A stretch of DNA of 64,000 nucleotides, taken from NCBI GenBank assembly GCA_047967505.1, contig CM106538.1, one strand, 5' to 3'. The number at the start of each line of letters is the position of its first letter. Position 1 is the stretch's first letter. Shown here in pieces: positions 7,841 to 64,000 of the stretch. Below the pieces are notes generated by a model, which was not told the origin of the DNA, searched no databases, and saw only the letters and a list, made by a program, of their open reading frames with translations. Both the position numbers and the translations under genes were made by a program. Source of the stretch: Dipteris shenzhenensis (taxonomy: Eukaryota).

Positions 7841-8578
7841 ATCTGCAAGTGTCCAATATACTACGAGATCCGGGGTCACTTTTAATGCCTCTTCAGATAC
7901 AACTTCGGGTTACTTTTCTGCTTTCTCACCTTCCCAGACCAGAGATGTTTGGCTGCCTTTATACATGAGGCAGTTAGACATCGAGACCGCCTACTCAGAT
8001 CACAGAGGCAAGGACGAGATGCACTGGCAGACTCCTCTCAGAGCATGATCATAGAATTTTTTCAGCCTGACCGCACAGGTAATCACCATGCGGACCTACA
8101 ACCCAGCCGGGCCCGGATCCATTGACGCGTCATACTCGATAGAGGATGGACATGCAAATTACACTTGGAGATATTCCTTCCATGTTTCAAGTTGGGGGTA
8201 CGAACAACTGGGGTCACCGCAGCCCTGGTCCAACGTAGAGCTTCCGCCAAGAGATCATGTCGTGTAGCGCCCACGGATAGTCGACAGCACTCTATCTCTG
8301 ACTTTATGTTACCACAACCTCATCGGGCATTGGGCCCTCATGATCTTGAGTTGGATTCTCCGATGTACTTTGATGATCTATGATGATAGTGGTGATGATG
8401 AGGGCCACACTAACATGGACATTATGCTTTTTCTTTGTATTGAGGTTCTTATGACTATGTAGCATGTAGTATGGGGGCTGATGCTTGCTCAGTAGCTCCA
8501 CCCTTTCAGCTTGTTTGTGTCTGGTTTCTCATAGTCTCACAGACCCATCGTTCTTTTGAAGACTCTAATAAACTCCCT

Positions 8579-8633
<55 letters not shown>

Positions 8634-8635
8634 TA
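7841..8635 (+). mobile_element. 5'-truncated RTE-X-like LINE 3' end inserted in a (CA)n tract
   Basis: Translates as CKCPIYYEIRGHF...DQRCLAAF. 3' stem-loop at 8534-8563, then a (CT)n tail. (CA)nT lies on both sides. Confidence 0.8.
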
Positions 8636-8669
8636 TCTTTCTTTCTTTCTTTCTTTCTTTTTTGTGTGT

Positions 8670-8920
8670 GTGTCTATGGGCAGTTTATCGAGATGGGCAG
8701 GCACTCATTCGAGACTTGAACCTAGACCCAAATTCGCTCAATCTTAAACCGATGTTATTTAGGCTAATTTCACAGTAGTATTTGGAAGGTAGTTATGCTA
8801 AAATAATTTTGAGCTGAGATGCCATGTGCACTGGTCGACTTTCTGGTTTATCAAGATGTTGTAAGTCATTTTAACATTTTGCACTTTGTCCCATAGGCCC
8901 GTGAGGCCTACCGACGATGT

Positions 8921-8973
<53 letters not shown>

Positions 8974-9296
8974 ATTTTCTAAGATACAATTAGTATTTAG
9001 TCATGCATCTAAATAATTGGGGCTGAGCTGCCTTGAGCGCTCCCTCAACTCTCTGGGTATCCAGATGTATCTCCAATTTTTTGGTGTGTACTTTGTCCCA
9101 TAGACCCATGAGGTCTTTCGAGGACGTTAATATATCTTTCCTTCTTCTCTAATAGGCTATAATAATTTCGAGCTGAGATGCCATGTGCACTAGTCGACTT
9201 TCTAGTTTATCTAGATGTTGCAAGTCATTTTGACATTTTGCACTTTGTCCCATAGGCCTGTGAGGCCTCCCAAGGACGTTAATATGACTCCCTCCC
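8670..9296 (+). mobile_element. Three short head-to-tail LINE/SINE-like 3' ends
   Basis: Stem-loop + TTAAT + pyrimidine tail at 8888-8971, 9095-9150 and 9247-9296. Segments of about 8798-8924 and 9157-9283 are near-identical. Confidence 0.7.
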
Positions 9297-9728
9297 TCCC
9301 AGGCCCAACCTAGTGGTTAGCTTCAGCCTTGGGGGTACTCAGATATGGCCAGCATGGAATGGCCAACTCTTTCGTCGAAATTGCCCTCAACACCAGCACC
9401 CTCAACTAAGGCATGATATGTGATAGTGACAGCCATGACGCCCTCTCAGTTTGCACGCAACTACCAACACGCAAGTTCAAAGAAAACCCATCATTGGGCA
9501 ACATAAACAGATTTATTATTTGCAGCACACAGTCAGAGAGTTAAGGCTGGAGCTGTCAAAAGTAAAGGCTCGACTTCACATTCTAGAAGGGCCTGGCAAA
9601 CAGGCAGTGATTGATGAGGTTGTGAAGTCTTGTAAGGCTTCCCCCCCTACCCCCCAGTTAGTCTCCACAGTCAAGGACTAGTTCATAAGAAATACGTACA
9701 GTCAAACAGGAGGTCATTGTGGAGTTTG

Positions 9729-12700
9729 TGTTGGTTATGGCAAGTAATGGAAGCTCAGAAATGAGTTATAGAAGGGCAAACACGAGCTGCTGTATTGAAA
9801 ATGCTGCTACAATGAGTAGAGGCTCAAGAGGGAGCCAATATGACAAAGCCCTAGGGCTAAATGCCCTAACTGGACTAAATGCCTCAACTGACCTAGGTGG
9901 TACATGTACTAACTGTACCAATAGTCCTAACTGACTATAACTAGGCCTACAAGGCACATACCAAGGAGTAAGTGGCACCTATGGATAGCCCATAGACTGG
10001 CCTACAAACCCCCCTCCATGGCATGGGCTGAAGTATCATGGGCATGGCTCAAGATACCTGAATATCTAATGTCATGGTTGCACATGTTCATCCTGTAGGG
10101 AATAGCAACCTATGACTAAACAAAGTACACAAATCAAGTTACAAAAGGTACTAAGTTTAAAGCTTGCCGAAAAGCCTCAAACTTAGGTCGAGGTAGAGCC
10201 TTCGTAAATAGATCTGCCAAGTTGTCTTCAGTGGGAACATAAGACAGCCGAATATCACCTACTGATAATCGATGTCTGACGTAGTAATAGTGAACCTCAA
10301 TATGCTTTGTGCGAGCATGGAAAACAAGATTCCGTGCAACAACCAAAGCACTCTGACTATCAGTGAAGATGACAGTAGGAGCAATCCGACATGCATAAAG
10401 ATCTACAAGTAGCTTCCGAAGCCAAACACACTTCATTGTAGTTGTAAAGGGGTGCTTTGTACTCAGCTTCACAGCTAGAAGTAGCAACTGTACTCTGCTT
10501 CTTGCCGAGCCATGAAACACATAAAGTACTAAGCATGAAACAGTTGCCACTACATGACACACGAGTGTCCGAACAACCAACCCAATCACTATCAGTGAAT
10601 CCATGCATGTCAAGTGAAGTATCAACCCCATAAAGGAGGCCTAAATGCTGAGTGCCTTTGAGATATCTGAAGACACGCTTCACGGCATGCCAATGGTGCA
10701 TAATTGGAGTGTGCATATATCTGCTCAACTGTGAGATAGCATACTATAGATCAGGTCTCGTATGGCATAAGTAAATCAAACAACCAACTGCCTCTGCTGA
10801 TAGAGAGTGACATCACATGTACCGCTGCCATCCTCAGAAAAGAAGTGAAAACCAAGCTCTAATGGTGTGGATACTGGCTTCCAATCTGCAAAAGCTGTCC
10901 AATGTACTTGGATTGTGACATCAAAATGCCCCCCTCACTGCTTGCAAATTGGATGCCCAGATAGTAGTGCAAAAGACCAAGATCAAACATAGCAAATGTC
11001 TTCTGCAAATCAAGCTTAAAATCTGCAATTTGCTTAGCATGTGTCCCAATCACAAGCATGTTATCCACGTAAAGGACTAAAATCAGCAAATCTGTCCCAC
11101 ATTTGCGGATGTAAAGGGTGGCCTCTGTAGGGCTGTTCTGAAAGCCAAGTGTGACCAAATGAGTATGAATCCTGGAATACCAAGCCCGAGGTGTCTGCTT
11201 CAATCCATAGAGAGCTTTCTTCAAGCGGCATACCTTTCTTTCAAAACCTTCACCCTCAAAGCCAAGAGGTTGGGAAACATAGACTTCTTCCTGCAAATGC
11301 CCATGAAGGAAAGCTGTCTTGATATCAAGCTGATGTACCTCCCGATGAAAGTGGGCAGCAAAGGCAATAACAATGTGAATAGTAGTGATCCTGGAAATGG
11401 GAGCAAAAGTCTCCTCAAAGTCAATGCCTTGTTGCTGAGCATAGCCCTTAGCAACAAGACGGGCTTTGTAACGGTCCATTGAATCATCAGCTTTCCGTTT
11501 AATTTTATAAACCCACTTAGTTCCAATGGCATTCTTGCCAGAAGGCAAATCACACAACTCCCAAGTTTTATTCTAATGGATAGAATCCAATTCAGCTTGC
11601 ATAGCCTGAATTCAACCAACAATAATTCTGAAAGGCATCTTGATGACATAATGGCTATTCATTGCATTCTGTAACAACCAAGGCATAAGCAACAAAACTA
11701 GCATGCTCTTTCCGCACAGCTGCTCTAGTACAGGCTGGCAGAGGAGTATCTTGTTTGCTGTCTTTTAATGTGTCAAGAAGCCAACGGGGGACCTTTTTGG
11801 GCTCCTCGATTTCAGCTCCTTCCTTGTCAAGATCCCTATGCAAATGGTCCTGATCAATCAGAGGCATATCAGGCTGAATATCTGCCTGCACATGTGGCTG
11901 CAAATGACCAACAGATGGAGGAGGTACAACCTCAGATGGAACATCATCCTGAGCATCGGACGAAAACAAAGACATCAAGTTGTCAAAGATATCTGGGGCA
12001 TCAACAACGAGCTGTTTTTATAGGAACAAAGGCGTAGTGGTAGATTCATCAAACACAACATCCCGACTGACAAAACACTTGCCCGTGCGGGGCTGATAGA
12101 GCTTCTAGCCCTTGCTCTCTAAGCTATACCCAATAAAAATGCACTTGACAGCTTTATCATCCAACTTGGTGCATGTCTGTGAAGGCACATGAGCATAGGC
12201 CAAGCATCCAAAAGTCCTCATGTGAGAAATGTGAGGCTTACGACCCTGTCCAAGCCTCATAAGGTGTGATAGTCTGCAATGCCTTTATGGGACATCTGTT
12301 CAAAATGTAAGTAGCACACATGACGGCATCCAACCACAACTTGTTAGGCAAATGTTTGCCGTTCAACATGCACTTGGCCATCTCCATCACTGACCTATTC
12401 TTCTGCTCAGCCACAGGATTCTATTGAGGAGTATAAGGCACCATGCATCAATGATGTATGCCACGTGAAGCCCAAAAAACAGTAAACTCCTTTGACATGT
12501 ATTCAGCCCCCCGTCTGTATGAAGGTGAGCAATGTGCAGCCCACTCTCATTCTCAGCTAAGGCAATAAAATGCTTGAAGCATGAAGACACTTCAGATTTG
12601 AATTTCAAGGCGAAAATCCAAGCGTACCTGGTGAAGTCATCCATAAAAGTGAGAAAATAATAGAAGCCCCCAAGAGCTGCAACCCTCATGGGTCCACAAA

Positions 12701-15700
12701 CATCACTATGAACCAAATAAAGCTTGCGTGAGGCACCAACTCTCCCATCCTTGGGAAACGCAACACAGTGCATCTTACCAAGCAAGCATGGTTCACAAAC
12801 ATGCTTTGAAGGCATATGCATTTTGGGAAGATCAATAACCATACCATCCTTATATAACTTCACCAAAGGTCCAAGTTGAGGTGTCCAAAACTCTCATGCC
12901 AAAAATGAGTATCTTCCATGGTAGAATCAAGAGCAAAGGCAAGTGTAGCATCATCCAAACACCTGTCATATGCATCAAGTCTATGAAGACCTCTAGTCAA
13001 TGTGCCAGTCAAGACCATGGTAAAGGCATGTGTAGCATCATACTCTGCACACCTAACACCATAAAAAAGAACCTGATAGCCACATGTAGCTATGGCTGAA
13101 ATGGAAATGAGGTTCTTGCGAATGCCTAGAACATAAAGCACATTCTTTGAGAGTATCGGAGGATGGGCTCATCATCAAACCTCGGTATCTGGAGGACAGA
13201 AGAGTCTCACACGAGGATTGCCATCGGACAGATGCGGGTCTCGTCCCATCAGCTAAGGATCGAGGCAGGAAGAGCTGCAGGCATACCCAGAGAGCAACGG
13301 ACTTACAGGTTATGCACGATGGGGGCGGTCGAGACAAAGCAGCATTTTTTCTGTGTCTGCCCAGCCTACTATGAGATCCGAGGGCGCTACCACTGCCTTA
13401 TACAGGAGGGACACGGCTTTGGCCCACTCTCACGACTGATCCACTTCCAAGACCAAGTTTGTATTGGGCTCTACCTGCTGATGGAGATGCGACGACACAA
13501 AGAGACTACTACGACATATCAGAGAGCAGCAGGATGGGACCACCGCACCACAAGGCACTGAGGTAGATCGAGCGCAAAGACAGGTCACGGATTTCTATGC
13601 ATTTGACTCAGCTCCAGGCACTCTGGGGAAGACGAGGAGGAGCTAGCCGACATGAGAGATGTATGGATCAGTGGAAAGAGCCGACATAGCACTGCTGGGC
13701 GAGGGACACAGAGACCGTACACGACGCGACAGGCGACCAGAGCACACAGGATCGAGGTTCGATCTATTTCAGCTCTCCTCAGGGGAGATCGATCGAGGCG
13801 AGGCGTCACCCTTGACATAGCCCATCGGAGACAGAGATTGAGGAGACCACGCACTCCACCACGGGAGACAGCCCGACAGATGCAGATACGTGAGCTCTTT
13901 GCATCTCATCAGAGAGCCACCATGGAGCCTGGATACGTGGAGCCGATTCATGCACTTGGGACTCTAGCTCTAAGCACTTGATATTTGCATGCCACCCTCA
14001 TGCTATTTTGCTACTTTTTTTGCTATTTCGTACTAGTATAGCATTTTAGTACTCAGCAAGGGCCTTAGTGAGCCCTTTGCCCTAGCCCACAGTGGCCTCT
14101 ATGAGTTACTTGATTCCGTACTTTTTCCCATAGGCCCGCGAGGCCTCCTGCAGCGGACATTAATTTTTCTTTCTTTCTTTCTTTCTAGAGTGACAACAAC
14201 ACCACATACAGAAGTAAGAGCAACTTACCCAATACCTTTCACGGTATATGATGCATTATTGGCACATGTGACACTGCTCCCCAGAAATGTATGCTCTAAC
14301 GAGCTGAATAACTTCCGGCAAGAAGTGATGTGCTTGCTAGCACCACTATCAAAGAACCAAGCATCATGAACATCTCAAACTATCATGCAAGCATCATGAA
14401 CATCAGGATTATACCGACATGTAACCAAGAAAGCCCAATGCTGGTCTTGTGCAAAATTAGCGGTTTCATGTCGATCTTCTGCACCACAAGAACCAAATAC
14501 TGCAAGACCACATTCTTTCTTCTTTTCAGATGCAATCCGTTTCCTGCATTCAAAAATATCATGCTGAGGTTTCTTGCAATAGTTACATCTCTTCTTCTTT
14601 TTGTTATCCCCTAAAGAAGAGGCACCATGTGAATGATCAGCATGAAAATGAGGGGGTTTAGCAGCTGAAACCTTGCCTTTGCCTTTGTCTTTATGCTTGG
14701 CAGCAAAGGCTTGGTCACCAGCCATAAAAGCATTGCGATTTGCACGACTTTGTTCCTCCTTGAAGGAGAAGAGCAACCAGCTGGTCAAATGAGAAATGGT
14801 TGGCATTGCCACCTGCAACCAACCTCAATGTAGTAGCAAAGCGTTGATAAGAATCGGGCAACCCATCAAGGGTATTAAAAACAAGCTGAGAATCAGACAT
14901 AATCTCATCAATGTTGGCCAATTGCTCTTTCAAATCCTTCACATTAGTGAGAAAGGCATCCATGTTACCACCCTCTTCAAGCTTCAAATCTTTCAACTGC
15001 TTACGGAGATAGGCAACCCTCGCCTCATTCCACACCTAATACAAGGATGCAAGCTGATCCCATGTTGCTTAGCTGTATTGCAAGACCGGATATGAGGGAT
15101 AATAATCCGTTTCACTGAAATAGCAATCAAGGCATGTGCTTTGGCATCACAACCATCCCACTGAATCTACTCCTGTGTAGGAGCCAAAGTACCTGTAGCT
15201 GCAGGTGCTCTCTAGAAGTAGCATTAGAACCATCACCTAAAGACCCATCCCTGAAGTAGAACCAAAGGCGGTAGGTGTAGCACCAGAAGCGGCATTACGT
15301 GTAGGCCTGGCCTCAGAACCTGAAACAATATGCCATAGATTCTTGGCAACCAAAACATGTCCATCATGTATGACCACATGGGAAAATTGGTGCCATCAAG
15401 CTTGTCATCAGCCCCAAGCATCCCAAACAAATCATCCTTGCTGCTAGTAATGGTGCTGAAATTCAAGACAAATGCATCAACTAGCAAAGCAAATGAGAGG
15501 AAGGCAGCCTCTCCACATCAAGTGACAAAATTCTGTTCAAGCTTCAAAGCTTATCCCTGCAAAAGACTCTGTTGTCCTAAGGTGTACCTGTTGCAAGAAA
15601 AATCCCCAAAAGGCAACACGAGGCCTTTCAAGGCAACACGGGGCCTTTCCAAAATGCAAATGAAGAAAAAATTGGAAAGAATCAATGCAACAACGGTTTA

Positions 15701-43593: not shown

Positions 43594-44003
43594 ACTAGTT
43601 CACATGATCTCAAGGTGGAAAGGGGTAGGTGGGCAAGACCCAAGATCCCTAGAGAAGAAAGGACCTGTAAATCCTGCCCCACAGGAGAGGTAGAAAATGA
43701 GCAGCATGTACTCCTAAGATCTAGAACCTACACTCACATCAGAGAAAGATATTAGGGCAGCAGAGACAATTTGAAAATCAGTTGGTACAGCTAGCCAAAA
43801 AGCTAGGAAGCTACTTGAAAGAGGTATTGGAACATCGAAACAAGGTACTGGGTCTAGCACCCAAGCTAGCCCAACAAGTACTCACTACATAAAGTTTGTT
43901 ATATTTCCTTTCACTGGTTGTAAGGGATCACCATTAGTTCATAATGATCGCCAGTCCCATAGATCCTGAAGGGTCCCACAGTGGACTTTAATGCATGCAT
44001 ATC

Positions 44004-44054
<51 letters not shown>

Positions 44055-44352
44055 ATGGAGGCCCAGCCCATCCCAGCTCTACTTAGAGGGACACCATCCA
44101 ACACGAGGCATCACTCTTGATATGGCCCACAGGATACAAAGACCACACCCTCCGTCAGCGATCCAACAAACACAGATAGAAGATAAATTTTTTAGCTTTG
44201 AGTATTTTGAGTTTCATAGTATAGCACTCAGCAAGGGCCCTAGCGAGCCCTTTGCCTCAGCCTACAATGGCTTATATGAGTTACTTTTGGATTGTAAATT
44301 GTCTCACAGGCCCGCAAGGCCTCGTGAAGACGTAGATATTTCATTCTTTCTA
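43594..44352 (+). mobile_element. Two head-to-tail 5'-truncated RTE-X-like LINE 3' ends (43594-44049 and 44050-44352)
   Basis: SSHDLKVERGR...PREERTCKSC...ENEQH, stem-loop at 43954-43992, then (CT)n. The second piece resembles 13780-14186 and has its stem-loop at 44301-44331. Confidence 0.85.
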
Positions 44353-45858
44353 TTATTTTCCAATCAGCATTCCAGGTTTTGCACTCAATAGTTAGGACGG
44401 GCACTGTTAGCGAGAGAGTATCTTAGGCACTTAGCCTGCTATAGGCTATAGCCTCACTGGGTGCAATTGCCCCCCATTACAAGGGGAGGAGTGGAGAGAG
44501 GCAAACACCTTCGCTCTTAATCCTTTACAACTGGGGAATATGGGGGCACTCTTGCTGTAGATCCTCACTAAACTGCGGAGGCTTGAAGCTCTGCTGTACC
44601 ACTGAACTGTAGGCTGAAGTATTGCTGACTGATGGCCACCTGTGGCAAGAGCTGTTTGTAGCTTTGCCATAAAACTCCAAAACTCCATTCCGAAACAGCA
44701 TACTATCCTCAGGCAGACGGACAACCTGAAGTTAAACAGGTGGGTGGAGGAAAATTTAAGACATTGTCAGAGGATCACTGGTAATGTAATGCTAGCTTGC
44801 AACAGGATAAGGAAGTACAAGGACTGTAATCGGACCAGAAACCCTAAAACAAAAGGCTTTATGGATGAGCCTGCAACAATTTTCTGTAAGCCTTCACCAA
44901 TCAATAGCATCTTTATTGTGAACTTCTACACGGGATGGTTCTGAATGCATCCTTGAACATGAGTGATTACCTCCTCTGCATTTACATGGAATGACTGATC
45001 ACGACTGTAAATTCAGACATACTCAGCTAGAGCTATTCCTTGAATGCTTTGGGCTGTCAAACCATAAAAAATCCCATGTTGTGTCCATAACGGCATAGCT
45101 CACACTTTCCCGGCTCTCCCTGCTGCCATACCGCTGCAATGCTAAAACAGTCAATGACTGGTATCGGATTGATCGGCAGCCTGAATATAAGCTGCGTTTA
45201 GTCAGGTTATTTTATAGGAATATTAGGCCTCCCTTAAGCTTCGTATGTCAACAGATTAAAAATTTAAGCTCAAAGGGAGCTCTACATGAGGTTCGAGTGA
45301 GGTTGTCACATCAATGTAGCAATGCCGCCCCTATTTGGCTAGGCACACAGAATACCCGTCAAATTCCAGATCTTGGTCAAGTTACAACGCATGACGCAAA
45401 GGGGTTGACCTACAGATTACATAACAAATGCGATCTTCTATCAATCTAACTTCATCGTTGACTAATTCCCTGCATGCCAAGAATCGTGCAACTCGCAAAT
45501 GCAGCTTAGGAGGCCTTTCCGACTTCAAGTCTTCTTATTTTCCGAGGTACTAAGACCACCAACCGTCGGGAAATACCGGGGCTATTTGTTCAGATTACCC
45601 TTTGATTCCAAGTGGAAACTCTCCTCAAGACGTACGTTGAAAAGGATGCAAAAGTCAAAACGGATCTATTCTCCATTTGCATTGAGCTTGTGCAGAGATC
45701 AGTACTTAGCACAAAAATCCATCGGTATTTCTTACCTCACCCCACCAAAACAATAGCATTCAAGTTCTTAACGAGATGGCACTGACTTCCACAAGTTAAC
45801 CTTCAATTTCCCTGAGGCATCGTGAAGCCAAACAGCCGCAAGAGAAGTTCACACTTAC

Positions 45859-47424: not shown

Positions 47425-49960
47425 GAGACAACCCTCCCCATTGAGATGGCAAGGTGCCCATTCAACATGCCAAGGTAATGCCAATGCTAACAAGGCATCA
47501 CAAATACAGTACTCTTGAGAGAGTTTCCCCTGCCTCTTCTCAAATAGCCTATCATGTGGAATGATAGTATACTTGATGAGCATGGCAGATGGCTTGCTTG
47601 GTAGTTCTCATTATATGCAGTGGCCTAGATGCGAGAGAGGTTCTATGGGGTTTACACCTACACTGTTTATTTCTTTTTGGGATATGATTGGCGACCTCCA
47701 TATCTTGGACCTGCATGTCATTTAAGACTTTGGTCTTGATTCTTTTACAAAGGGTCTCATTCATCTTATCCCAAAAGGGCCTTGTAGAAATTTAAATTCT
47801 CAATGGAGGCCAATTACTCTCTTGGGCACTTCTAACAAAATTTTGGCAAAATTCATTAGTACTTGCATCCCATCCTTCCAAACCTCAATTGATATGGGGT
47901 GTGTAAGTACCCATGCAAACATAATTGGCTTCACATTAGGCTAATGAGCATGTGTCACATCACAATATGGTTTACATTTATTAGTCAAGTCTAATGTAGA
48001 GAATCTCTCTCTCTCTTTCACCTCAACAATTGACCATCTCTACATGCAGAACTTACACTAACAAGAAGTATAATGAAGAAGGTGAGAGTGCTCTCAACGG
48101 AAGCAAGAACGGAAGAGGGAGAGAGAGAAATAGAGAGCCGCACAAGTTTTGGTGGGTGCAGAACACCCTAATCTTCTTTTTCATTCATTTATATATGTGT
48201 TTGAGTATTGTACATAACCGGGGTAAAGGCACAGTAACCTTTAACCCCCACAACCTCCCACTTAAAGGACAATGTGCCTTTAAGGGAGAACAACCAGTGA
48301 GCATACTATCCAATGCCCATCAATACACGACAATACTCAAACCGCTGACTAGGTAGACTCTTCGTCAGCATACCTGCAGGGTTATCGTCTGTATGAACCT
48401 TGACAAGCTCTATGCGCTTGTCCTCAAGTACCTCCCTGATGAAATGGTACCTGACCTCAATGTGTTTGGTCTTTGCATGAAAGACCGGACACCGTGCTAG
48501 CTGAATAGCACTCATGGAATCACTATGCAATGTCGATACACCTGTATGAATCCCCAAATCTCCCACTAGCCGATCAAGCCATATAGCCTCCTTGCAAATC
48601 TCCCACTAGCCGATCAAGCCATATGTGCACGAGACATCCACGACACTGCACCACCTGTAAAGGTGAACACATAACCAGAAGTGAATCTCCTACTATCCAC
48701 ATGCATTGCATAGTCTGAATCTGTGTACCCAAGTACACGCATGTCTTCTCTACCAAAGCAGATGCACATCTCCTTGGTATCCTTCATGTACCTCATGATG
48801 CACTTAACTGCCTCCCAATGCCTCTTTCTTGGATTAGCCATATACCGGCTAACAACTCCCACTGCAAATGCAATGTCTAGTCTAGTAGCTATCATAGCAT
48901 ACATAAGACTCCCAACTGTTGATGAATAAGGAACCTTGGCCATCATGGCCCTTTCCTCATCTGATTTGGGACTATCTATATGACTCAGTTTCACATATGG
49001 AGGCAATGGAGTACTCATTGCCTTCCCCCCCTCCATATTGAAACACTGCAATACTTTTGTAACATACTCCTTCTGTGAAAGCCAAATGAGTTTCCTACTC
49101 CAATCACGCGTGATGCGCATACCAAGAATATGACCTGCAAGTCCCAAATCCTTCATATCAAAGGCCTCATGCAACTTGGCCTTTAATGTATCTAGCTCAT
49201 AAGTATTCTGGCTAGCCAATAGCATATCATCCACATATAGTGCCAGGATTATCAGGCTATTATCCTTAGCCCTTTTAGTGTAGAGGCAGTGATCAATTTC
49301 ACTCCTTCTCAAACCCTGGGAGCGAATGAAAGCATCAAACTTCTGATACCATTCTCTAGGCACTTGCTTAAGACCATAGAGACTCTTCTTCAGCTTACAA
49401 ACTAAATGCTCTTTGCCCTTTTCTTCAAAGCCTTCCGGCTGCACCATGTAAATTTCCTCATGCAAATCCCCATGCAAGAAAGCTGTATTGACATCCATCT
49501 GCATAAGCTCCATATCCTCTAATGCTACTAGTCCAAGCATGCATCTAAGTGTGGTCATCTTCACAACCGGAGAGAATATCTCATCAAAGTCCACACCCTT
49601 CTCTTGCTTGTACCTAGGCACATCGTCACTTGTGACCTTCATCTTGTAGACCCATTTACATGGCAATGCTTTCTTCCCATGTGGCAAAGAAACCAAGTCC
49701 CAAGTCTTATTCTTCATAAGTGAACTCATCTCTGATTGCATAGCATACTCCCACTTGTGTTGATCCTCGCGCATCATAGCCTCTCTATAGCAAGAAGGCT
49801 CCCCGCAATTAGTAAGCATCACATAGTCTACCCCTAGAACAAACCTATCAGGCGGTCTAGACACTAGATGATCTTCTCAAGGGCATTTCGGCTTGCTGTC
49901 CCACCTGCATATCAACCACATTTGGCTCATCATTTCCACCAATAGATGATCCATCATCTA

Positions 49961-50368
49961 CCCTTGATTGTATACCTGTGGGAGTATTTGGTGGTACCAT
50001 TTCTTGCACATTTGGTGCATGGACAGCTTGCTGTCTATCAACATATGCAGGTGGATTCACATCCTGGAAAGTGATTCTCCTCATTTCCACATCCCTCATG
50101 GGTGCCTTATGCATCTTCTTCTCATTGAAGACTACATCATGGCTGCGTATGATCTTCTTTGCTTCCCTTGATTGTATACCTGTGGGAGTATTTGGTGGTA
50201 CCATTTCTTGCACATTTGGTGCATGGACAGCTTGCTGTCTATCAACATATGCAGGTGGATTCACATCCTGGAAAGTGATTCTCCTCATTTCCACATCCCT
50301 CATGGGTGCCTTATGCATCTTCTTCTCATTGAAGACTACATCATGGCTGCGTATGATCTTCTTTGCTT
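49961..50368. repeat. In-frame 204-bp tandem duplication in the Copia H integrase C-terminus
   Basis: A 68-aa block is repeated in ORF 49857..51398. The copies start at 49961 and 50165. Confidence 0.95.
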
Positions 50369-51470
50369 CTGGATCCCAAAGACGATAGCCCATCTCTCCA
50401 CTTTCACCATAACCCAGAAAGATGCATTTCCTAGACTTAGGATCTAGCTTCTTTCGAAGCTCTTTTGGCACATGTGCATATGCCTCACACCCAAATATAC
50501 GCAAATGAGAGTAAGAGGGCTTCTTGCCACTCCATGCCTCTTCAGGAATACCACCATCCAAACTCTTACTAGGTGATCTATTGATCACATGCACTGCAGT
50601 CTTCATTGCCTCAGCCCAAAAACCACCAGAAAGAATTGCATTGGAAAGCATGCATTGCAACCTTTCTTGAATGGTACGATTCATCTTTTCTGCAAGTGGA
50701 TTTTGCTCTGGAGTATGAGGGGATGTGAGCTCCCGCTTAATCCCACGTGTATCACAGAAATGTTGAAAGTCATGAGAGAGATACTCTCCACCATTGTCAG
50801 CCTGTAGGCATTTAAGCGTTCTACCTGACTGATTCTCAACCAAGGCCAGCCATTTCTGAAATACGTACAACACGTCACTCTTCCGACCTATAGCATAAGC
50901 CCACACTTTCCTAGTTGCATCATCAATGAATGTCACATAGTATTCAGCCCCGCCTAATGACCGTGTAGGCATGGGACCACATACGTCTGAATGCACCAAA
51001 TCAAGCTTTTTAAACTGTTTCTTTCCCCTTCTTTTATGGGCTGATTTAGTCTGCTTCCCATAGAGACAGTTCTCACAAAATTCAAAATCAGAGAAACTCA
51101 AATGCGGTACATAACCCAAATGGCATAAGAGTTTCATTCCATTCTGGCTCATGTGCCCCAACCTGCAATGCCACAAAGAAGTGCTTGGCTGCTCGGTTAT
51201 TGCAACAACATGATCAAATACCCCTGATACATGTAAGGGATACAAAGTCCCACACTTGGCACCCCTGGCCAAAAGCATAGAGCCCTTCTGAATTTTCCAA
51301 TTCTGAAAGCCAAAAGTGGTGTGAAAACCAGCATCATCTAGCGGACCCACTGAAATGAGACTCTTGGTCAACTTAGGCACATGTCTCACATGTTTCAAAA
51401 TAAATGCAGACCCATTTGCAAAAGAAAACTATGTCACCTACTCCCACTATGTCACATGCATAGTCATTTC

Positions 51471-52330
51471 TTCGGATGCGTCAATTTTACGAGCAAAAAC
51501 CTATGAGCAGGTTTATACGAGCGTGTTTTTCAAGAGATTTTAAAAATAGTATTTCTTTAGGAAATATGGTTTTTACACTTTTATTTTCATTAGAACTAGA
51601 TCCCTTTATCATAAAATTATACAAACTAGTCACTCATTCATTTTTACATAACATAAATCTTCCTATTCATAGACATCCCTTTGTACCCTTGTTATTACCT
51701 TTAAAAAGTATATTAACTTGGGCTTATATATCACTCTCATAAAATACATGTAATATTTAATACTATATATGCAAGGTTTTTCAAAATATAACCCCATAGA
51801 TGTGCTCAAATGGGGTTTTTCGATCAATTTGAGTGGCTGAATGACTATATTTGGACATTGGATGTGAAAGTTATGTCACTTTTAAAAGTGCTGTCCAAAG
51901 GTAGTTTTGCCAGCGAAACTACCTTGAAAGACCTTGTTCAAAGGGGTTTCGCTGGCGAAACTACCTTGATGGCTTGCTTCAATGAGTTTTCTTTGGAGAA
52001 ACCCTTTCATGAAGATAGGTTGAGAGAGGTTTTTCAATGTCACCCCCTATTAAGTAAAAAGTTGTAAGAAGGATCATAAGGGAATTTTCATAGAGAAGTC
52101 TACTCTACATGTGGGTTTCTTTAAAAGCCATCCCATTATGTTCTCACCATTCCCAAAGATTCACATAAATATTCATGTATAAAATAGGCATTCCTATAAT
52201 ACTTTTCATATTTCTAAGTGAAACTATGTTTTCTTCTTATCTATTTTTGTCATATTTTTGCATAGTTAGAAGCTTTTTTTTTCCTTCGCTCGGATGCTCG
52301 GAAGATTTCGCTCGAAAAATGCTCGTCCCC
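51471..52330. mobile_element. AT-rich MITE-like insertion (860 bp) in the Copia H protease region
   Basis: Interrupts the LGNDYACDIVG coding sequence. CATTTC lies on both sides (51465-51470 and 52331-52336). Degenerate inverted ends (ttttacgagcaaaa / tttcgctcgaaaaa). Confidence 0.7.
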
Positions 52331-53052
52331 CATTTCCAAGATGCACACAACCTGTCTTTCCACTGTCATAAGTGGAGAACCATTCCCTATGGGGAGTAAC
52401 ATGGAATGAAGCACCAGAATCCAAAATCTAATCCTGGGATATATGCATCATCTGAAGTGGTAAGCAACTCTGCAGATAAACTAGACAAGAAGAGAACGTC
52501 ATTGTCACTATCATGTGTGATTGCATTGATCTCCTCGATCTTCACTTTTCCTTTGTTCTCCCTTGGACTCTCCTCCTTCTGATTTGCACCCCAATTTGCA
52601 TTCTTTTTCTTATCCTTTTGCTCTCTTTTCAGCTTGTAGCAATCCTTTTTCATATGGCCCTTCTTGCCACAGTGGTAACACTCAATGTTCCATGCCCTAG
52701 ATTTGCTACGAGACTTCCCTCTTTCTTGGGACTTCCCCCTGAACTGTGATTTGCCCCTTTGCACATTTAAGGCTGCATCCTGCTTGTTGCCGTCCATGGA
52801 CTTCCGTCTAATATCCTCGGCCAACAAGCTACGCACAACATCATCAAATTTCAGTACTCCACCAGGTGCAGAGTTATTGACAGCTGTACAGAAGATATCC
52901 CATGAGGATGGCAATGAACATAAGAGAAATATTGCCTTAGTCTCTGCATCAAAATTCATCTTCTGAGCCTGAAGCTGGCTGAAAATAATATTGAATTCAT
53001 TCAAGTGAGAAGCAATGGAGACCCCTTCCTTCATCTGCAGCTCACAAACCTC

Positions 53053-53825
53053 TGATGAAGTTTTCTTTAAAAGGTCTACCTTGATGATGGTGATGAATTC
53101 TAATGGACCAAAGTACGAGGAATTTAACATCAAAAGCCTCGAAGCTTTTGAGGGTCCATAGAAGGAATTTTTACTTTGCAAAGTCTTGTTTGTTCATCGA
53201 AGATCAGGGATTATTGTTGCTATCCGTGTGTGGAATACAACAACGATGATGTAGCAGCATTACATAGGAGTTCAAGATATTTTCTTTGCATTTTGGACTT
53301 AGGAAAGAAGGGTGTCCCCCAATTTGAAAGATGTATGTCGAAAGAGGTAACACAAGAAAAGCTATGTGAAGCAATTTTTCCATCTTCTCCATCTTCGCGA
53401 GGAACCTTAGGTCAATGCACTCACTGCTTTATAGCTTTCATGGGAGTGCTATTAGGTACTTCCAATAGACACTACAATGCTTTACAAATTCTTTGTCCCC
53501 CCATGAATTCTATGGATTTTTGGATTGCTTTGGATTGAGGTGCTTTTTGACTACTTTAAAAATGATGTGTGGCTACTAGGGGCCATAATGAAGATCACAT
53601 ACAATAAAGCTACCAATTCTTGGTGACTTTGGACTACTTTGGAATTGCTTGGGGTCATGTGAACCCCCCAAGCTAGGGGCCACATAAACTCCCCCAAGCA
53701 CTAACTAAACGTGCTTTTGGGACTATTTGAGAGTGCTTTCAGAATGCTTTGTGGCTGTTTGAGATTGCTTTGAGAATGCTTTGTGGCTAGAGCCATGATA
53801 AACTGCTTTGTGACTAATTGGATTC
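53053..53825. other. Unidentified ~770-bp insertion in the Copia H gag
   Basis: gag reads ...YEKETASNKVYL to ~53826 and resumes CELQMKEG at ~53047. The intervening DNA is unrelated. Confidence 0.65.
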
Positions 53826-55964
53826 GAGGTAAACTTTATTAGAGGCAGTTTCCTTCTCATAAGTGGCGCACAGTTTCTTCCACAAATCTTCCGTAGTCCG
53901 CTAATTTACTACTGTGAAATAAACTGACTTTGCAAGATGAAGTCTAATAGTAGACTTTGCTAATGCATCCAACTCATTCCAATCATCCTCAGACATATCT
54001 GCAAGCTTAGCTTCAATACCTGCCAAGGGTTTAATTTGCTTCTTTTGAATAAGCACATCCCTTATTTGTTCTTTCCACAAAGAAAAGTTTGTCCCATCAA
54101 AGTTTTTAATGTTGAAAAACTCCTTTTTAGAAATGGAAGAGGATGCCATGATGCAAATGAAACAAAATCTCAAATGCTAGTACCTACAAGAGAGAATCAC
54201 ACCAAGTACTAGGTGCACCCAAATGTGTATGCCACAATAGAGTGAAATATCACCAAAACTCAAAGCTCAAAGCATCAAAAAAGATGCAGCTGACTCATGT
54301 GCATGTACTATGCATCCATATGACCCAAAAGAAAATGCAAATTGCAATGGCAATCCAAAATGCCAATAGGTGCCAAATGGCTCAAGCATAAACACCGTCC
54401 ATGGGCATATGCATCAATAATATCTCATCCAAGAGAGCATAACACTATCAGTGCATCACCTGGAATGTGTCAAAGCTGTCCCTCAGCATAATATAGCATC
54501 CATGTGCAAAGCGTCCATAAAAATAGCATCCCACAAGGCAATTTGGGCCTATTAGCACATCCAATAAGGATCGCAATGCATCCAAATGGCCTATAAATCA
54601 TCCACTGCAACCCAATGCACACCACGAATGAGCGCACATGGCTCAAACTGCAACCAAAGTGATTCGCATAAGGTATGCTCAAGAAAACATGGTCCCACAG
54701 AAAAGACCACTACTGAAAATAGAACCTGAGATGCCTCAAAACATGGGCGCCATTGCATAATCGGACTCAGCAAGAAAATCTGCAAATATCTCTCTTCTGC
54801 CGAAACTCCAAAATCCCAACGGATGAGTGAGAAATAGGAGTCAACACTTATCCACTGCCATGTGGCATAAATCTAAGGTTTCAAAACCTTAGAATGAAAA
54901 ATGCATAACAGAGAGACAAAATCGAATACACAGAGATCTATAACTCTGAAAATACTCCACTGAATCGCGCAAGAACTGATATGTAGGGTTTTTGGGCGTC
55001 CGAAACACAATGGGACAGATGGTTTTGGAAATCATGGTCTCAATCACTAGGTCCAACACACAAACTGAAAAATGTTTTTGGAAACAGAGCTGTTTGTAAA
55101 CTCCACCGGAGTGCGAATGATGAGCAACATAGAAGTTTTAGACCTCCTGAGTCCACCGGAACTGACAGATCTCGATCTGCAAATGGTTGCTTCAAACTTC
55201 AGTTCCAACACCCGGGCAGAAAAACGTAGGAACTGACACGGTGAGTCAAAAATCCAATGAAATGATCCTAGATTCAAGAATGAAGGTGTTTCCAAGCTCC
55301 TGAAATGAAGTGGACACCAAAAGCAAGCAATAGTTGCCTCTACAAGTCAATATGGAGTCTCTGTTATCGAACGGAACAGGGAAAAGCTCAAAAAATGACT
55401 TTCTTTGAAAACACTTAACAGGCTCTCAAAACCACTTCGCAAAACCAAAGTGACTTTTCCAAAGATTCCTCCAAGGTCTCTGCACACTCGGATGTAAGTA
55501 AAGTCACCCATAAAGCTTCCCACAGAGCTTCTCCTTCCTCCCACAAAGCTACTGAGCTTCCAGGCATTCACGTACGCTCAGCTAGATCACCCGAGCTCTG
55601 ATACCAGTTGAGAGTGCTCTCAACGGAAGAAAGAACGAAAGAGGGAGAGAGAGAAATAGAGAGCCACACAAGTTTTGGTGGGTGCAGAACACCCTAATCT
55701 TCTTTTTCATTCATTTATATATGTGTTTGAGTATTGTACATAACCGAGGTAAAGGCACAGTGACCTTTAACCCCCACAGAAGGTCCAAAGATATTGATGC
55801 AAAAGACTTGAGCCAGAAATCATCCATGAACTCATCTAACAACATTCTCAATTCATAGAAAAGCTTGCGGTTACTTCCAGTACAAAGTTATGCTCACCCA
55901 AATTGCATGGAGGGCTGAAAGAGCTTTTCGAGAAACACCGACAAGCTCTTGGTTTGATGCAGAG

Positions 55965-58319: not shown

Positions 58320-58372
<53 letters not shown>

Positions 58373-58472: not shown

Positions 58473-59559
58473 CGTACTTCAAGATGAAATAAAAAATATT
58501 AACTCACAACATAATACTCGATGGTATGCCAAAATCACTCATACTTAAGAACTTTTATTGAAAAACGATCAGTAAACTTGGTGAGAAACATCAGTGGAAA
58601 AGCAATGACAAATGCATTGCCATAATGTAAAGATGAACCAAGAAAATCATTCTAAGAATGAATTCATACTTACGAAGCATACGGATTTATTTTGGGAGAA
58701 TATAATCTTTTCCATGAGCTATACAATCTATGCAACTTACCTACCATGATCAAAGCTCCATTTCACAAAAACTAAGTGGTACAAACCCATGTGTGCCTTT
58801 TACTTTAAATGTGAAAACATTGTGAGGCCAATCAATCTAAAGTTTATCTTGCAATTTGTGATGAGGGTTTACCATCATTAAAAGCAAATTCCTTGCAAGA
58901 CTTTAAAGGTCAAAATTAATTGCATGTGGTGCATGCATTACTATTTTAGAGTAACAACAAAGTCACAATGTAGAATTGAGAAAAGGCATCTGAAAGATAG
59001 CCAATTGAACATGCATTAATGAAGGGAGATAATGTGGCACTAAAAGTTTGGAAGGGAATCAAGCCCGCAACTAGACATCTTACAATTGTTTTGATAACAT
59101 ATGCTCACAATCACGAGGACAAAAGAGAGAACTTTAAGCAAAGAGCATGGATGACAATAAGACACCTCAGAGTTGTTTCAATAGCATATGCTCACATCCA
59201 TGAGGATGAAAGGGAGAATTTTAAACAGAGAACGACATGCATATTCATTGGATAATCATATGAGAAAAAGGAAACCAAGGTGTTTTGTATCAAGGTGTTA
59301 TCTTTAAAGAATAACAAAAGGGAGCCCATGGCATCATGATCACATTGATTTTAAAATCCCATGATGGATTTGGAATAACGCGATGATGCAATTGGAGACA
59401 TAATTAATATAATCAAATAGATGTATGAGTATATACTTTCAAATAAACGAAAGTCTTGAATAACCTGAGACATGAGCATCAAGCTAAGTATCAAGCTCTC
59501 CTCAATAGAGAAGAGTTGATAGCCCTGCAACAACTTCCCTGAGATGGGTAAAGGAAAAT

Positions 59560-60260
59560 GATAGAAGATGCAACAGACTTTGACAAGAAAACTAGACATC
59601 ATGTTCTACGTTGGCCTTTTTCAAATGTTGAAAAACAAGCATCTTTTAAAGAGGCAAAAAAATCTAAACATTGTGTAGGGGCCATGGAGAAAGAATATGA
59701 AGGCATTGTGAAAAAAACTTAATGCAAACCTACAGACCACCTCCAAATAAAAACGTTGCTGGTTACTAAGGATTTCCAAAACCAAACTCAAATGCAAAGG
59801 CAAGTTGAAAGACACAAAACAAGGTTAGTAGCTCTCAATAGATAAGAGTAATTTTCAAGAGAATTTTTGCAATTCTAATCAAACTACTATTGTCAATTAC
59901 ACACAAATTGGACTTGTATCTTCATTACATGAACGTCCAATGGGATTCTCTCAGTAGATATCTACAGGGAAAAGTCTACATTTAACCAACACGAGGTTTT
60001 AAGGGAGGACTTGTAAAAAAACCACCTGAAAATCTGACAATCGCTGCAACCTATGTTAATGCTCTAATATGATCGAGTCATGGTAAGCACACCACAGATT
60101 TGATAGTTCAAGTCAAGGCAGAATTGTGTGGGCAGTTTAACGTGAGAGATCTAGGAGAACACTTTGTATATTCAGGTAAACAAGTTATCCATTCACTAAA
60201 TACTTAACGAGTTCAATATTACAGAATGCAGAATTATCAATACTCCAATTGAGACTAAGA
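59560..60260 (+). mobile_element. Highly decayed Copia RT relic
   Basis: Traces AMEKEYEGIVK, RHKTRLVA and GQFNVRDLG in the expected order. Confidence 0.55.
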
Positions 60261-60669
60261 GTGAGAAATAAACTGAGCAGAATTAGAAGTACAGTGGAGT
60301 CAATAATTTGTGATAGTAACAGCACATGAATTACGAGAAGGAGAGAAAACACTCAACTGATATTTATATCAATCGAAGTTGAAGCTGAGCCCAACAAAGC
60401 TCTTCTGATTACAAAGCTTTGACTGTCACTATTACATGAGGACACTCCAGTATAAGCTTGACAGGTAGCTCGAATGTGAGCTCTACACATACTGGAACCT
60501 TGCTTGATTGACTAACGTTACAACTACATGAAAGCGCCACTTTTGCGTTTGGAGTTTATAAAAAAAAGCGTCTCTTCCATGTCAACTGGTCTTATCCTCC
60601 AAGCCTGACAATAACCATGATTCATAAATCCTGGGCTCAACTTAATGCAGTTTGTAGGTCAACATAGTA

Positions 60670-62270
60670 TCAATTCTGCTGTGAGCAGCATGCACTAGGT
60701 ACAAACCAAACCCCCATTGAGCACTTGTCTTCCAGGAACGTCAAAACTAGAACTTGTGCTCGCAATTGAGAATTCAAGAGGTTCACTCTCTTCCCATGCA
60801 TACTTGATACATAACTGCTTCCAGACTTGTATAAAGGAATATCAACCCTCAAAACTGCTATATCAACTAAAAATAAGCACAAAGCCCTGTTAGCCCCATA
60901 CGAATCAGGCCTTCACATTGACACAATATTTGTGGAAGGGTTTCAGCTTTGGCTATGTGTAAAATATTGACCACAATACTGCAGTCTTCACCTCGTCTAA
61001 AGCCTAACTCGAAGAAATTTATACCCTACAGCTTGACAAGCCCACCAGATTCAACAGATCCTCTTGTAAATTCCTACTGAGAAGCATACAGTGGACTGCC
61101 TTTGGCTAATTGTTGGTACATCTCCTGCACAACAACAGCTAGCTACAAAAACATCGATCCAAGTATTTCTCTGGTTCCTTACATGCTGACTGATGCCTTA
61201 ATATATCCTCCAGAGGGCTCACCAAATAACTTTTAACCTAGGGGGCATATTCCAGTTAATTCAAGACTAAATCATATGATGTGCTATGTCTGATTTTGCT
61301 GCATCTGAATACCATTTCTTTGACTGAGGTTTTCACACTTCATTCTGAATACCAAGTACTTCATACACATGTTTAATTATCATATTCCCCTCTTGAAAAC
61401 TTATCTTCCGAAAAATATACAGCAACTACTGTGTTGTCCGCAAACTTTCTTCCATGCAGAACAGCTTTGGCCATGCCTGCTTCTTTGGGATCACTATACT
61501 CCAGAAAAACCTGCAAATGTACTCAATAAGCATAGAGCATCCATCTTGCAGATGTGATCAAACCTGGGACGTAATATTCATACAAACCCAGGTTTTTATC
61601 CACATAGCGTCATAGGAATAGCAAAATGAATAGGGTCATACTTCTGAGTGCCTAATGCTGCAATCACAAACTTGAACGGATCGTAGAATGCAGTACATGC
61701 TATAAAAGTTCAGCTTTGCTTTGTGTGAATATTTGTCGTGTTTCAATATTCTCGTATTAACACACAGACAAGCATGATCACTTCTACATGGTAAAGAGAA
61801 CAAAGCCACAACGAGGAAAGACCCAGCTGCTATAACAATCACATTGTCACATTGTCCTTCCTTATCACAGCAGGTTTATATATCAAGACATGCATCCTAA
61901 AGTAGCTTACTTATTACCTTCCCAATTCCAGGAACAACCTCTCCATTTCCTCTTGATCGAGGAATCACAAGCTTTAAGAGTGTGCCTGCAACCATACTTG
62001 CAATTAGAAAGACGTTACATAAGATAAATGAGGAGTAATACGAGGTCAACTAAGAACCCCACTGAACTAACCATATTTGCCACATTCCTCTTTCATGTCG
62101 TCATATATCTCATTGAACACTTCATCATCCTTCAGCTCATCTGGTGTCACAACCTGTCTAACAAGCTCATTAAAGCACACATCTATGGTTTATCATTAGA
62201 ACAATATATAATCCACTACAACAAGCCCACAAAATTTTCACTAGTAGTAAATATCCACTGAAAATCTTTC
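60670..62270 (-). mobile_element. Possible highly decayed Copia RT/RNase H relic
   Basis: Only weak traces (QRQSTV near 61100, FVPS near 60700). Boundaries are uncertain. Confidence 0.35.
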
Positions 62271-62877
62271 AATCTCCACGATGAACCAAGCCCAAATGTA
62301 ACCATCCATCAATGCACCATCATCCATGCAACACACTAGTGCCAATGGAGGGAAGGCGACAACACTAGTACCAATGGGCGGCACATTGGGGAGGTGCCAG
62401 AGTTTACGTTATCTAAAATCCACAAACGAATTTTTCCTCAACATGTCACCATGTACCAAACATGGTGCCAGAGTTTACAGATCTAAAAATTCATGAAAGA
62501 ATATTTCCCAAACATGTCACCATGGTGCACATTAACAGTGCAATGAGTGGCCAAAAAAGGGTACTGTCTTGGGGACTGCTGCTGTAAAACTGAAACAGAA
62601 CACGTTTAATCTCTGTTGTCATGTCTCCAGGAAAAGAGTGCTCAAAGGGTGAATGAAGTATCAAATTCTAGAGCTAGTTGGCTCAAGACTTTGAATGTTT
62701 AAGGGGTTGAGCCACAGTTTGTTAGCTGAAAGGCTCACTAATTGATTTGATACTGTATTGATGCTTGTCATTAAAAAAGAGGCATTTCATGTCAATTGGA
62801 CAAATAAATATTGCACAGGCCAATAGATGCATAGTGGGCGGTCCTTTATTATTTCACAACACATGAGAGATATTTTG

Positions 62878-64000
62878 AAGAAAGAAAGAAAGAAAGTTTA
62901 TTTAAGTCTTCGGAAGACCGATGGGTCTATGAGACTGTGAAAATCCTAATACAACAAGCTGTGGTAGTGGAGCTACTAAACGAGCGTCCATACCAATACA
63001 AAATGCAAAAATGCAGAATGGCAGTACTAAGTCCTAAGTACAACATAGTCATGTCGATGGTCGACTATATATCAGTCTCAGCATCGTCATCAACATCATC
63101 ATGATCATCGGCAGCAGCAAGATATCAGGATGGATGAGGCAGTGGAGGCATGAGGTCGGCGATAGAGTGCTGTTGGCCACTCAAAGGTGCGGTCCTGGCA
63201 CGTCTCCTGGTCGTAGCTCTTCGTTTGACCAGGGCTACTATGACCCCCGTCGGTCGGGCTCCGACCCTAAAGAAGGAGGGGATGTCCCCAAGTGTGATCT
63301 GTGTGTCGACCCTCTGTCTGAGCTGTCGGGTCACAGGCTCCGGGTCACGGTCATGTCGAGGCCTCGTCTCGTGGGGGTCCATGTGATCTAGCTGAAAGAA
63401 CTCCGTGATAGAGCTCTGAGAGGGATCAGCCGAGGAAGAAGTCTGCTCCTGTCTCCGTGCTCAAAGTATCCTCTCACGGTGTCTAAGTGCCTCATGAATG
63501 AAACCTGCCAAACACCGCTGGTCGCGGTGGGAGAGGAAACAGGCCAAAATCCCGTAACTATCCCTGAAGAGGCAGTGGAAATGCCCTCGGATCTCATAGT
63601 ACACAGGACACCTGAAGATGAAATGCTCCTCTGTCTCAACCTCCTGCATGTCACACAGTGTGCATATGCGCCTCTCCTTGGGTAGTCACTCTGCTTGGAA
63701 CTGCCCAAGAGAGATCCTCAACGAGTGGGGTAGGTGAATCTACATGTATCCTGGTGGGTCAATAAAACCCTCCGCTGTGATATGTAAGAAGCGATCTCTA
63801 TAGAAGCGATCTCTACAGAAGCTAAGATTCACTGGGAGTTCACTCAGTCCCAACCAGGTCCGAAATATGTGTAGCTGTAGTAGATCCTCACGGATAACCT
63901 AGTTGACCTTGTGTGATAAGAGGGGAGAAAACGGAGCATCCATGGTGTACAGGAAGGGAGGTAGTCTATCCATGTGGAGCCCCAATCGCTCAAACCATCT
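62878..64000 (-). mobile_element. RTE-X-like LINE 3' part, continuing beyond the window
   Basis: VETEEHFIFRCPVYYEIRGHF. Stem-loop at 62906-62935 and (TTTC)n tail at 62878-62896. Same subfamily as 7841-8635. Confidence 0.9.

Follow-up and report, generated by a model that had tools for sequence, protein, structure and literature searches.

The window analysed here, a 64,000-nucleotide stretch of Dipteris shenzhenensis DNA (GenBank assembly GCA_047967505.1, contig CM106538.1), carries decayed copies of a long interspersed nuclear element (LINE) whose second open reading frame (ORF2) continues past its CCHC zinc finger into a C-terminal tail. This tail contains a conserved motif, hereafter motif 1, with the family consensus Q-x-x-[IL]-T-[DS]-F-F. 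We propose that the family is an APE-type LINE of vascular plants with a largely disordered C-terminal tail, and that motif 1 is a canonical PCNA-interacting peptide (PIP) box that probably docks the ORF2 protein (ORF2p) on the clamp PCNA; from sequence comparison and predicted structures we put the probability of this reading at about 0.6. The conserved feature is real, and what is new is the tail-borne PIP box, PIP boxes in transposable-element enzymes being already known. No plant LINE with a C-terminal PIP tail is described in the titles and abstract openings of the papers retrieved by our literature searches.

Motif 1 occurs in three LINE copies of the window. It reads QSSITEFF in copy c63 (63395..63418, minus strand), QSMIIEFF in copy c7841 (8039..8062, plus strand) and QRQVTDFY in copy c13 (13575..13598, plus strand). 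The c63 string has the canonical PIP-box pattern and is homologous to the family motif Q-x-x-[IL]-T-x-F-F. Residue Q occupies position 1 in all three copies, and position 4 of the c13 motif is V, which falls outside the strict [ILM] set. These and the further PIP-like strings discussed below had been quoted in a preliminary description of the window, and all of them are present at the coordinates it gave. The same description had placed the c13 motif after one frameshift; we find the finger and the distal block of this copy in one frame and motif 1 in another, which makes two frame changes, in addition to stops. Between c63 and c7841, the residues Q, I, E, F and F of motif 1 are kept and both variable positions have changed residue, the codons for E and the first F differing by synonymous changes only. 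The codon differences between these two copies are 24 synonymous and 54 non-synonymous in the tail, compared to 18 and 14, respectively, in the finger domain.

A search of all six frames of the window with the strict pattern Qxx[ILMV]xx[FY][FY] gave eight matches, against 6.6 ± 2.3 in shuffled sequences. As this count is at the level of chance, occurrence alone is no evidence. Three of the eight strings fall at the homologous place of the three LINE copies, and the signal in the window is this homologous position, not the number of strings.

Sequence comparison across the family revealed that the motif is held at a fixed distance from the zinc finger. With a query running from just before the finger of c63 to its stop codon, with X at an in-frame TGA (P0001), phmmer against 1.84 billion representative proteins found 337 relatives of the finger and tail at E<=1e-3. 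A word-based search with a relative that also contains reverse transcriptase (RT) sequence led to full-length ORF2 proteins, and a separate search for longer homologues with the c63 protein gave two matches. The motif was counted in a set of 271 proteins: 183 include the finger's second half, and among these, 76 extend at least 75 residues past the last Cys. The core pattern [ILMV]xx[FY][FY] lies 50–68 residues past the last finger Cys in 50 of the 76 proteins, compared to a mean of 0.93 and a maximum of 5 in shuffled tails, and 34 of the 76 have Q at position 1 as well (shuffled tails, 0.04). Over 51 occurrences the successive conserved positions are made up of Q (34), I or L (40 and 10), T (46), D or S (24 and 9), F (49) and F (50). 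A later search with 21 matches contributed seven further proteins with a long enough tail, and all seven carry the motif at an offset of 57–61.

Intact ORF2 proteins of 1195–1271 residues that carry the motif come from Diphasiastrum, Pteridium, Adiantum and Taxus. The named relatives belong to the lycophyte Diphasiastrum complanatum, the fern Pteridium aquilinum (transcriptome), the fern Adiantum nelumboides and the conifer Taxus chinensis; the taxonomic range given here is based on these four species, which agree with the plant host assumed in the preliminary description. Several of the full-length proteins represent clusters whose members, of the same length, lie on separate contigs of ~5 kb. 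The family has also entered gene annotation. The Adiantum gene model P0093 (471 residues), in which a long, unrelated C-terminal part follows the LINE finger and PIP tail, is probably chimeric, and several other Adiantum and Taxus proteins annotated as “hypothetical proteins” contain pieces of the family as well.

The preliminary description had pictured the motif as retained within a poorly conserved tail, and for motif 1 this is what the alignments reveal. In an alignment of 63 tails, built without requiring the motif, the motif columns reach 1.6–3.1 bits, whereas the flanking linker columns have about 0.5–1.2 bits. Position 4 is I in 42, L in 13 and V in 3 of the tails, and positions 7 and 8 are F in 47 or Y in 5 and F in 51 or Y in 3, respectively. 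The motif fits the canonical PIP consensus, as had been claimed, with both its aliphatic position 4 and its aromatic pair at positions 7–8 conserved. In a separate 29-row alignment, the two motif Phe residues are among five columns in total that are conserved at 90% or more. The linker preceding the motif is poorly conserved and variable in length. Motif 1 is an island of conservation within a tail of poor conservation and low predicted local distance difference test (pLDDT) scores.

The tail belongs to the coding sequence. As the preliminary description had it, ORF2 does not stop before the tail: in 13 full-length family ORF2s (951–1271 residues), the finger is followed by 126–163 further residues. 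Motif 1 is present in its strict form in 11 of the 13, as the core only in one (P0159) and not at all in one (P0167). Pfam scans of four of these proteins (P0153, P0155, P0161 and P0163) identified an Exo_endo_phos endonuclease (PF03372) and RVT_1 in each, and the C, C, H and C columns of the finger are invariant in 72 ORF2s. With an N-terminal Exo_endo_phos, an RVT_1 and a C-terminal CCHC finger, the proteins have the composition of an APE-type LINE ORF2.

Phylogenetic analysis with FastTree of 79 full-length LINE ORF2s placed the motif-bearing proteins as 12 members of one 16-row clade with Shimodaira–Hasegawa-like support of 97. The other four members are two proteins that end before the finger, one long-branch chimeric model and P0167. 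Compared to the 126–163 residues of the clade, the 63 outgroup LINE ORF2s end 44–87 residues (median 51) past the finger, and the sole motif “match” among them lies ~20 residues past the finger, within the folded domain. The tail is an extension restricted to this clade, adding roughly 75–110 C-terminal residues behind the CCHC finger domain. The window also contains a member of a different LINE lineage (43594..43850, plus strand; finger at 43666–43716), which had been described as tailless. This holds: its frame ends soon after the finger, just beyond KLGSYLKEVLEHRNKVL (43800–43850), and this short C-terminus is probably the ancestral state.

Contigs from four public sequencing runs of two organisms were aligned to c63 at a likeness of at least 80% (43, 297, 174 and 62 contigs). 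At place 63463, within the in-frame TGA of c63 (63461..63463, minus strand), all or most contigs of the four runs differ so as to give an Arg codon, the residue that c7841 had been noted to have there. The 333-nt tail frame is free of the seven indels listed for the contigs on c63; six of them lie in the 3′ untranslated region (UTR) and the remaining one affects the finger domain. The letter differences comprise the 40 best-supported of 173, and we draw no conclusion from their distribution.

The predicted structures agree on a well-folded finger region followed by a tail of low confidence. In the AlphaFold2 model of P0002, the closest relative of c63 (29-sequence alignment), the finger/helical domain of residues 11–70 has a pLDDT of about 77–95, and the tail has 48–63, with 54–58 around the motif and a three-residue helical turn at its D-F-F. 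The model of full-length P0163 (72-sequence alignment) has a mean pLDDT of 87 and a predicted template modelling score of 0.78. Its successive ten-residue pLDDT blocks at the motif are 93, 72, 43 and 34, and the values past the motif are 34–54. Two low-confidence helices farther on correspond to a basic block, drawn as a short helix, and to the terminal helix. Structural similarity search of the P0163 model using Foldseek revealed human L1 ORF2p as the best match (E 8e-36, TMq 0.52, 15% identity), followed by R2. A profile of the finger and tail found nothing significant in the PDB, where the sole match was 8xyl_B with an E-value of 0.46, and a search of the ESM Atlas with the P0155 tail gave no usable match. 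The 8xyl_B entry, named “Methyltransferase MT, putative”, is aligned across a KKITDFF string, which may itself be a PIP box.

The tail contains further blocks downstream of motif 1. Intact relatives have a block R-G-[VI]-T-L-x-x-A-x-x-x-R-x-R-R-P-R, to which the basic block RGVTLDIAHRRQRLRRPR of c13 (13799–13852, within the distal tail at 13799..13900, plus strand) and that of c44 (44104–44154, plus strand) are homologous; we infer that its R-R-R-P-R cluster resembles a nuclear localization signal (NLS). In the distal tail, intact relatives also have a helix with the pattern Q/H-x-x-I-x-x-I-L-x-x-H. The preliminary description had recognized a second, looser PIP-like motif near the end of the tail in four copies, namely QHSIADLM in c63 (63149..63172, minus strand, 14 codons before the stop), QHSISDFM in c7841 (8285..8308, plus strand), QMQIRELF in c13 (13877–13900) and QTQIEDKFF in c44 (44167–44193). 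The last string does begin at 44167, but it belongs to the separate c44 fragment rather than to the element at 43594.

We considered these strings as a single PIP motif homologous in all copies and rejected this, as those of subfamily B (c13 and c44) coincide by position with the conserved Q/H-x-x-I-x-x-I-L..H helix, in which the intact subfamily-B relatives inspected lack an aromatic pair. In subfamily A, to which c63 and c7841 belong, the second motif does resemble a PIP box, with QSSIARFF close to the C-terminus of P0002, ..LLQGFF in P0052 and QHSISDFM in c7841. At place 63154 in the second motif of c63, most contigs differ such that an L codon becomes an F codon. A second [ILMV]xx[FY][FY] farther down the tail is present in 13 of the 76 long-tail proteins, some of these cases being chance-like or within chimeric models; in one subfamily (P0035, P0041 and P0083), it lies ~43 residues past the first. 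The “multivalent” tail of the preliminary description holds only in part, since the second motif is PIP-like in some subfamilies only, and multivalency is a subfamily trait, not a family trait. The string QITLGDIPSFF, found between the two motifs in c63 (63269..63301, minus strand), is located as had been described; in c7841, QITLGDIPS (8155–8181) lies in another frame, set off by two compensating indels. It is not conserved as a PIP box in the relatives, where only ..D-[IL]-P-S.. is conserved in subfamily A, with a Pro at the position that would fall in the turn of the motif. A different terminal feature marks one branch of ten proteins (P0024, P0126, P0153–P0159 and P0175), whose C-terminus reads ..H-P-x-x-x-T-G-W-x or ..R-L-G-W-x; the window copies do not have the ..H-P-x-x-x-T-G-W-x ending.

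Several observations weigh against PCNA docking by motif 1. A third of the occurrences have no Q at position 1 (Q in 34 of 51), and one subfamily reads T-Q-x-I-T-x-F-F or D-x-x-I-T-S-F-F. The motif is missing at offset 50–68 from 26 of the 76 long-tail proteins; some of these are chimeric gene models or decayed copies, and at least one is an outgroup protein. P0167, the full-length protein closest to the window copies (48–63%, tblastn), lacks the motif, although its tail is of normal length. Since the query included the tail, tail-bearing relatives are enriched among the matches, an effect that does not explain the contrast between the motif and its flanks. In the P0163 model, the motif (1124–1131) closes the last helix (1099–1131) of the folded part and so may not be free. 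Finally, PIP-like motifs also bind partners other than PCNA. It is unlikely that the motif recruits such a partner, for example another repair protein that reads FF-type motifs (MLH1 or the C-terminal domain of REV1) or a factor specific to plants. The best-conserved positions would fit this, being I-T-x-F-F (F in 49–50 of 51) and not Q, and FF-centred motifs are common to several repair interaction classes; against it, Q in two thirds of the cases, the aliphatic position 4 and the aromatic pair 7–8 are conserved together at the canonical spacing, and the T-D at positions 5–6 is typical of tight PCNA binders. PCNA docking is the best reading because the defining positions co-occur at this spacing, together with T-D, and because transposable-element enzymes are known to use the route.

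The end of the helix in P0163 also raises the question of whether the motif is an intramolecular or ribonucleoprotein element, formed where the final helix of the C-terminal domain ends and packing on ORF2p itself, ORF1p or RNA. The motif is indeed the distal end of helix 1099–1131 with a pLDDT of about 72, and an excerpt of a structural study reports that the “PIP box helix” of human L1 packs against the RT palm and fingers (PMC10830420). Confidence drops steeply at the motif, however, and around the motif of P0002 it is only 54–58. In addition, the motif is preceded by a linker of low conservation and variable length, and it sits in an extension absent from 63 other LINE ORF2s. We regard such an element as distinctly unlikely. 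The make-up of position 5 (T in 46 of 51) and position 6 (D in 24 of 51) would also fit a PCNA-dependent degron, either for CRL4-Cdt2-type destruction of ORF2p by the host or as a means by which the element limits its own dose. A PIP degron is characterized by TD at positions 5–6 and a basic residue four places after the motif. In the family, position 12 is T in 15, P in 9, S in 6, R in 5, A in 3 and E in 3 of the 51 occurrences, so that the family motif does not have the composition of a PIP degron; as the basic residue is rare, and as a motif purely harmful to the element should not persist across the clade, a degron is highly improbable. Chance resemblance in a neutrally decaying, non-coding 3′ sequence would account for the chance-level count of strict matches in the window (8 against 6.6) and for the stops and frameshifts that break the window copies. 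Yet it leaves 50 of 76 proteins with the motif at a fixed offset, against 0.93 in shuffles, intact full-length ORFs that continue through the tail, and conservation that spans lycophyte to conifer. At the family level, the sequence comparison refutes chance resemblance, which retains a negligible probability.

On the PCNA-docking reading, we propose that motif 1 would dock ORF2p on PCNA by inserting into the hydrophobic pocket beneath the interdomain connecting loop, either while target-primed reverse transcription is under way or right after it. The clamp could then deliver the repair and replication enzymes bound to it to the RNA:cDNA intermediate, or steer insertion to DNA that is being replicated; PCNA has been proposed to work in this manner with human L1 ORF2p. 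The basic R-R-R-P-R cluster may add nuclear import, and in some subfamilies, including subfamily A, the second PIP-like motif at the extreme C-terminus may add avidity. Whether an ancient LINE clade ranging from lycophyte to conifer has independently evolved an exposed, high-affinity PCNA-docking tail, composed of a PIP box, an NLS-like block and a terminal helix or second PIP box, we judge an even question. In that case, recruitment of the clamp would have arisen convergently and hence would be a general requirement of target-primed reverse transcription by APE-type LINEs and not a peculiarity of mammalian L1. The family would also provide a cleaner system for the role of PCNA at the insertion site than L1, whose PIP helix packs on the RT, and mutants with FF changed to AA or with the tail deleted would be simple means to probe clamp docking. 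In addition, the tail with its PIP box is an annotation marker for a little-described LINE family in giant fern and gymnosperm genomes.

The window itself is rich in transposons, with copia and gypsy pieces encoding gag, protease, RT, RNase H and integrase on both strands (Pfam). The copies of the LINE family within it, located by tblastn with full-length relatives, are dead relics that still show the motifs. Copy c63 (subfamily A; 63128..64000, minus strand) comprises the 3′ part of ORF2 and continues beyond the window end at 64000. It matches residues ~917–1160 of the full-length relatives (tblastn), and its frame is open to the stop at 63125–63127, save for an earlier stop at 63686–63688 and the single TGA. 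Its CCHC zinc finger, C-x2-C-x9-H-x4-C with a YYEIRG box, lies at 63578..63664 (minus strand), and its stop codon and 3′UTR occupy 62895..63127 (minus strand), with AATAAA at 62897–62902 followed by (TTCT)n. Copy c7841 (subfamily A; 7838..8575, plus strand) is a 5′-truncated 3′ fragment that starts at a (CA)n run and contains half of the finger (7850–7882) and an AATAAA (8567–8572). The two subfamily-A copies share 66% DNA identity and can be aligned across the tail and 3′UTR, each 3′UTR ending in AATAAA and then a (TTCT)n- or (CT)n-type repeat.

The subfamily-B copies can barely be aligned to subfamily A at the DNA level. Copy c13 is a 3′ fragment (13114..14186, end approximate, plus strand) that is cut by a copia element on its 5′ side, has its finger at 13313–13390, is interrupted by stops and two frame changes, and terminates in (TTCT)n. 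Copy c44 is a short, 5′-truncated 3′ fragment (44063..44360, ends approximate, plus strand) that begins after a (CT)n run. From the ends of c63 and c13, the family seems to have a (TTCT)n-type repeat in place of poly(A) as its 3′ tail. Microsatellites adjoin the LINE fragments at 8573–8640, 7815–7838, 44010–44062 and 62870–62896, with (CA)n where c7841 is truncated on its 5′ side, (CT)n(CA)n past its 3′ end, (CT)n before c44 and (TTCT)n after c63 and c13.

A decayed 5′ part of the same family (2329..4274, plus strand) covers the endonuclease to the middle of the RT (residues ~1–713), and further pieces lie at 873–1427 (plus strand) and 1434–2239 (minus strand), all identified by tblastn. We considered 2329–4274 and 7838–8575 as one contiguous element and rejected this, as ~350 codons are absent between them and the interval contains an ORF1-like frame. 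This open frame of 256 residues (6741–7508, plus strand) is coiled-coil-like in its middle, and by eye its C-terminal part is LINE ORF1-like (resembling an RNA recognition motif and a C-terminal domain); it has no Pfam match above the cut-off and no sequence match in the PDB. As it lies ~330 bp upstream of c7841, it may represent the ORF1 of a copy with an internal deletion. Among the elements of the window, a copia is the least decayed, with long open frames of 420, 523 and 268 residues at 48617–51428 and 52390–53193 (minus strand). Across 48617–53193 (minus strand), Pfam identified gag, integrase, an SH3-like domain and RVT_2. The string QNTLIFFF occurs twice, at 48159–48182 and 55685–55708 (both plus strand), 7.5 kb apart and flanking these copia frames; the two copies are probably the two long terminal repeats of one copia element and an example of a PIP-like string arising by chance.

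Several known systems resemble the proposed tail, and their published descriptions are taken here from excerpts of the reports cited. The PIP consensus is Qxx[I/L/M]xxF[F/Y], and PIP boxes are carried by the pogo, Tigger and Lemi1 transposases as well as by human L1 ORF2p, in which both PCNA binding and retrotransposition depend on the motif (PMC5371812, PMC5478143). Very few positive host factors are known that bind a LINE protein directly, and PCNA is among them (PMC5478143). The L1 motif (residues 404–419), located between the endonuclease and the RT, forms a tower helix packed on the RT; PCNA has been proposed to recruit RNase H2 for L1, and the placement of the motif as a structural helix on the RT is part of what makes the role of PCNA there hard to define (PMC10830420).

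Human L1 ORF2p resembles the plant family in being a LINE protein with an APE endonuclease, an RT and a canonical PIP pattern, and it is the best overall fold match. They differ, however, in the position of the motif, which sits in a C-terminal low-confidence extension behind the finger in the plant family but between the endonuclease and the RT in L1. The RT sequence is no more similar to L1 than to R2 (L1 E 1.7e-18, R2 2.4e-24; PDB sequence search), and the 3′ ends of the family have AATAAA and (TTCT)n, compared to poly(A) in L1. Together with weak Exo_endo_phos_2 matches on P0161 and P0163 (Pfam), the R2-leaning RT sequence and the (TTCT)n ends argue, in a comparison with L1 and R2, that the family lies outside the L1 clade. 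The 11 motif-bearing full-length proteins have no strict PIP box between the endonuclease and the RT, so the tail motif looks like an independent solution, which points to its acquisition independently of the L1 PIP box.

The family is also similar to pogo, Tigger and the plant example Lemi1 in having a transposable-element enzyme with a PCNA-binding motif (PMC5371812), although binding by the LINE tail is a prediction. Those enzymes are DDE transposases of DNA transposons, whereas the family encodes a retrotransposon RT protein, and the functional role of the PIP motif in them is called unclear in the excerpt (PMC5371812). In its arrangement, with motif 1 preceding the R-R-R-P-R block, the tail resembles host proteins of the FEN1/p21 type, with which it has no sequence relationship (PDB profile search, best E 0.46). 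In such clamp clients, the PIP box lies within a terminal tail that is disordered, and a basic cluster comes after it. If the proposed docking holds, a second, unrelated LINE lineage with a PIP box in a free C-terminal tail, retained between lycophyte and conifer, would argue that clamp docking is selected in LINE mobility generally.

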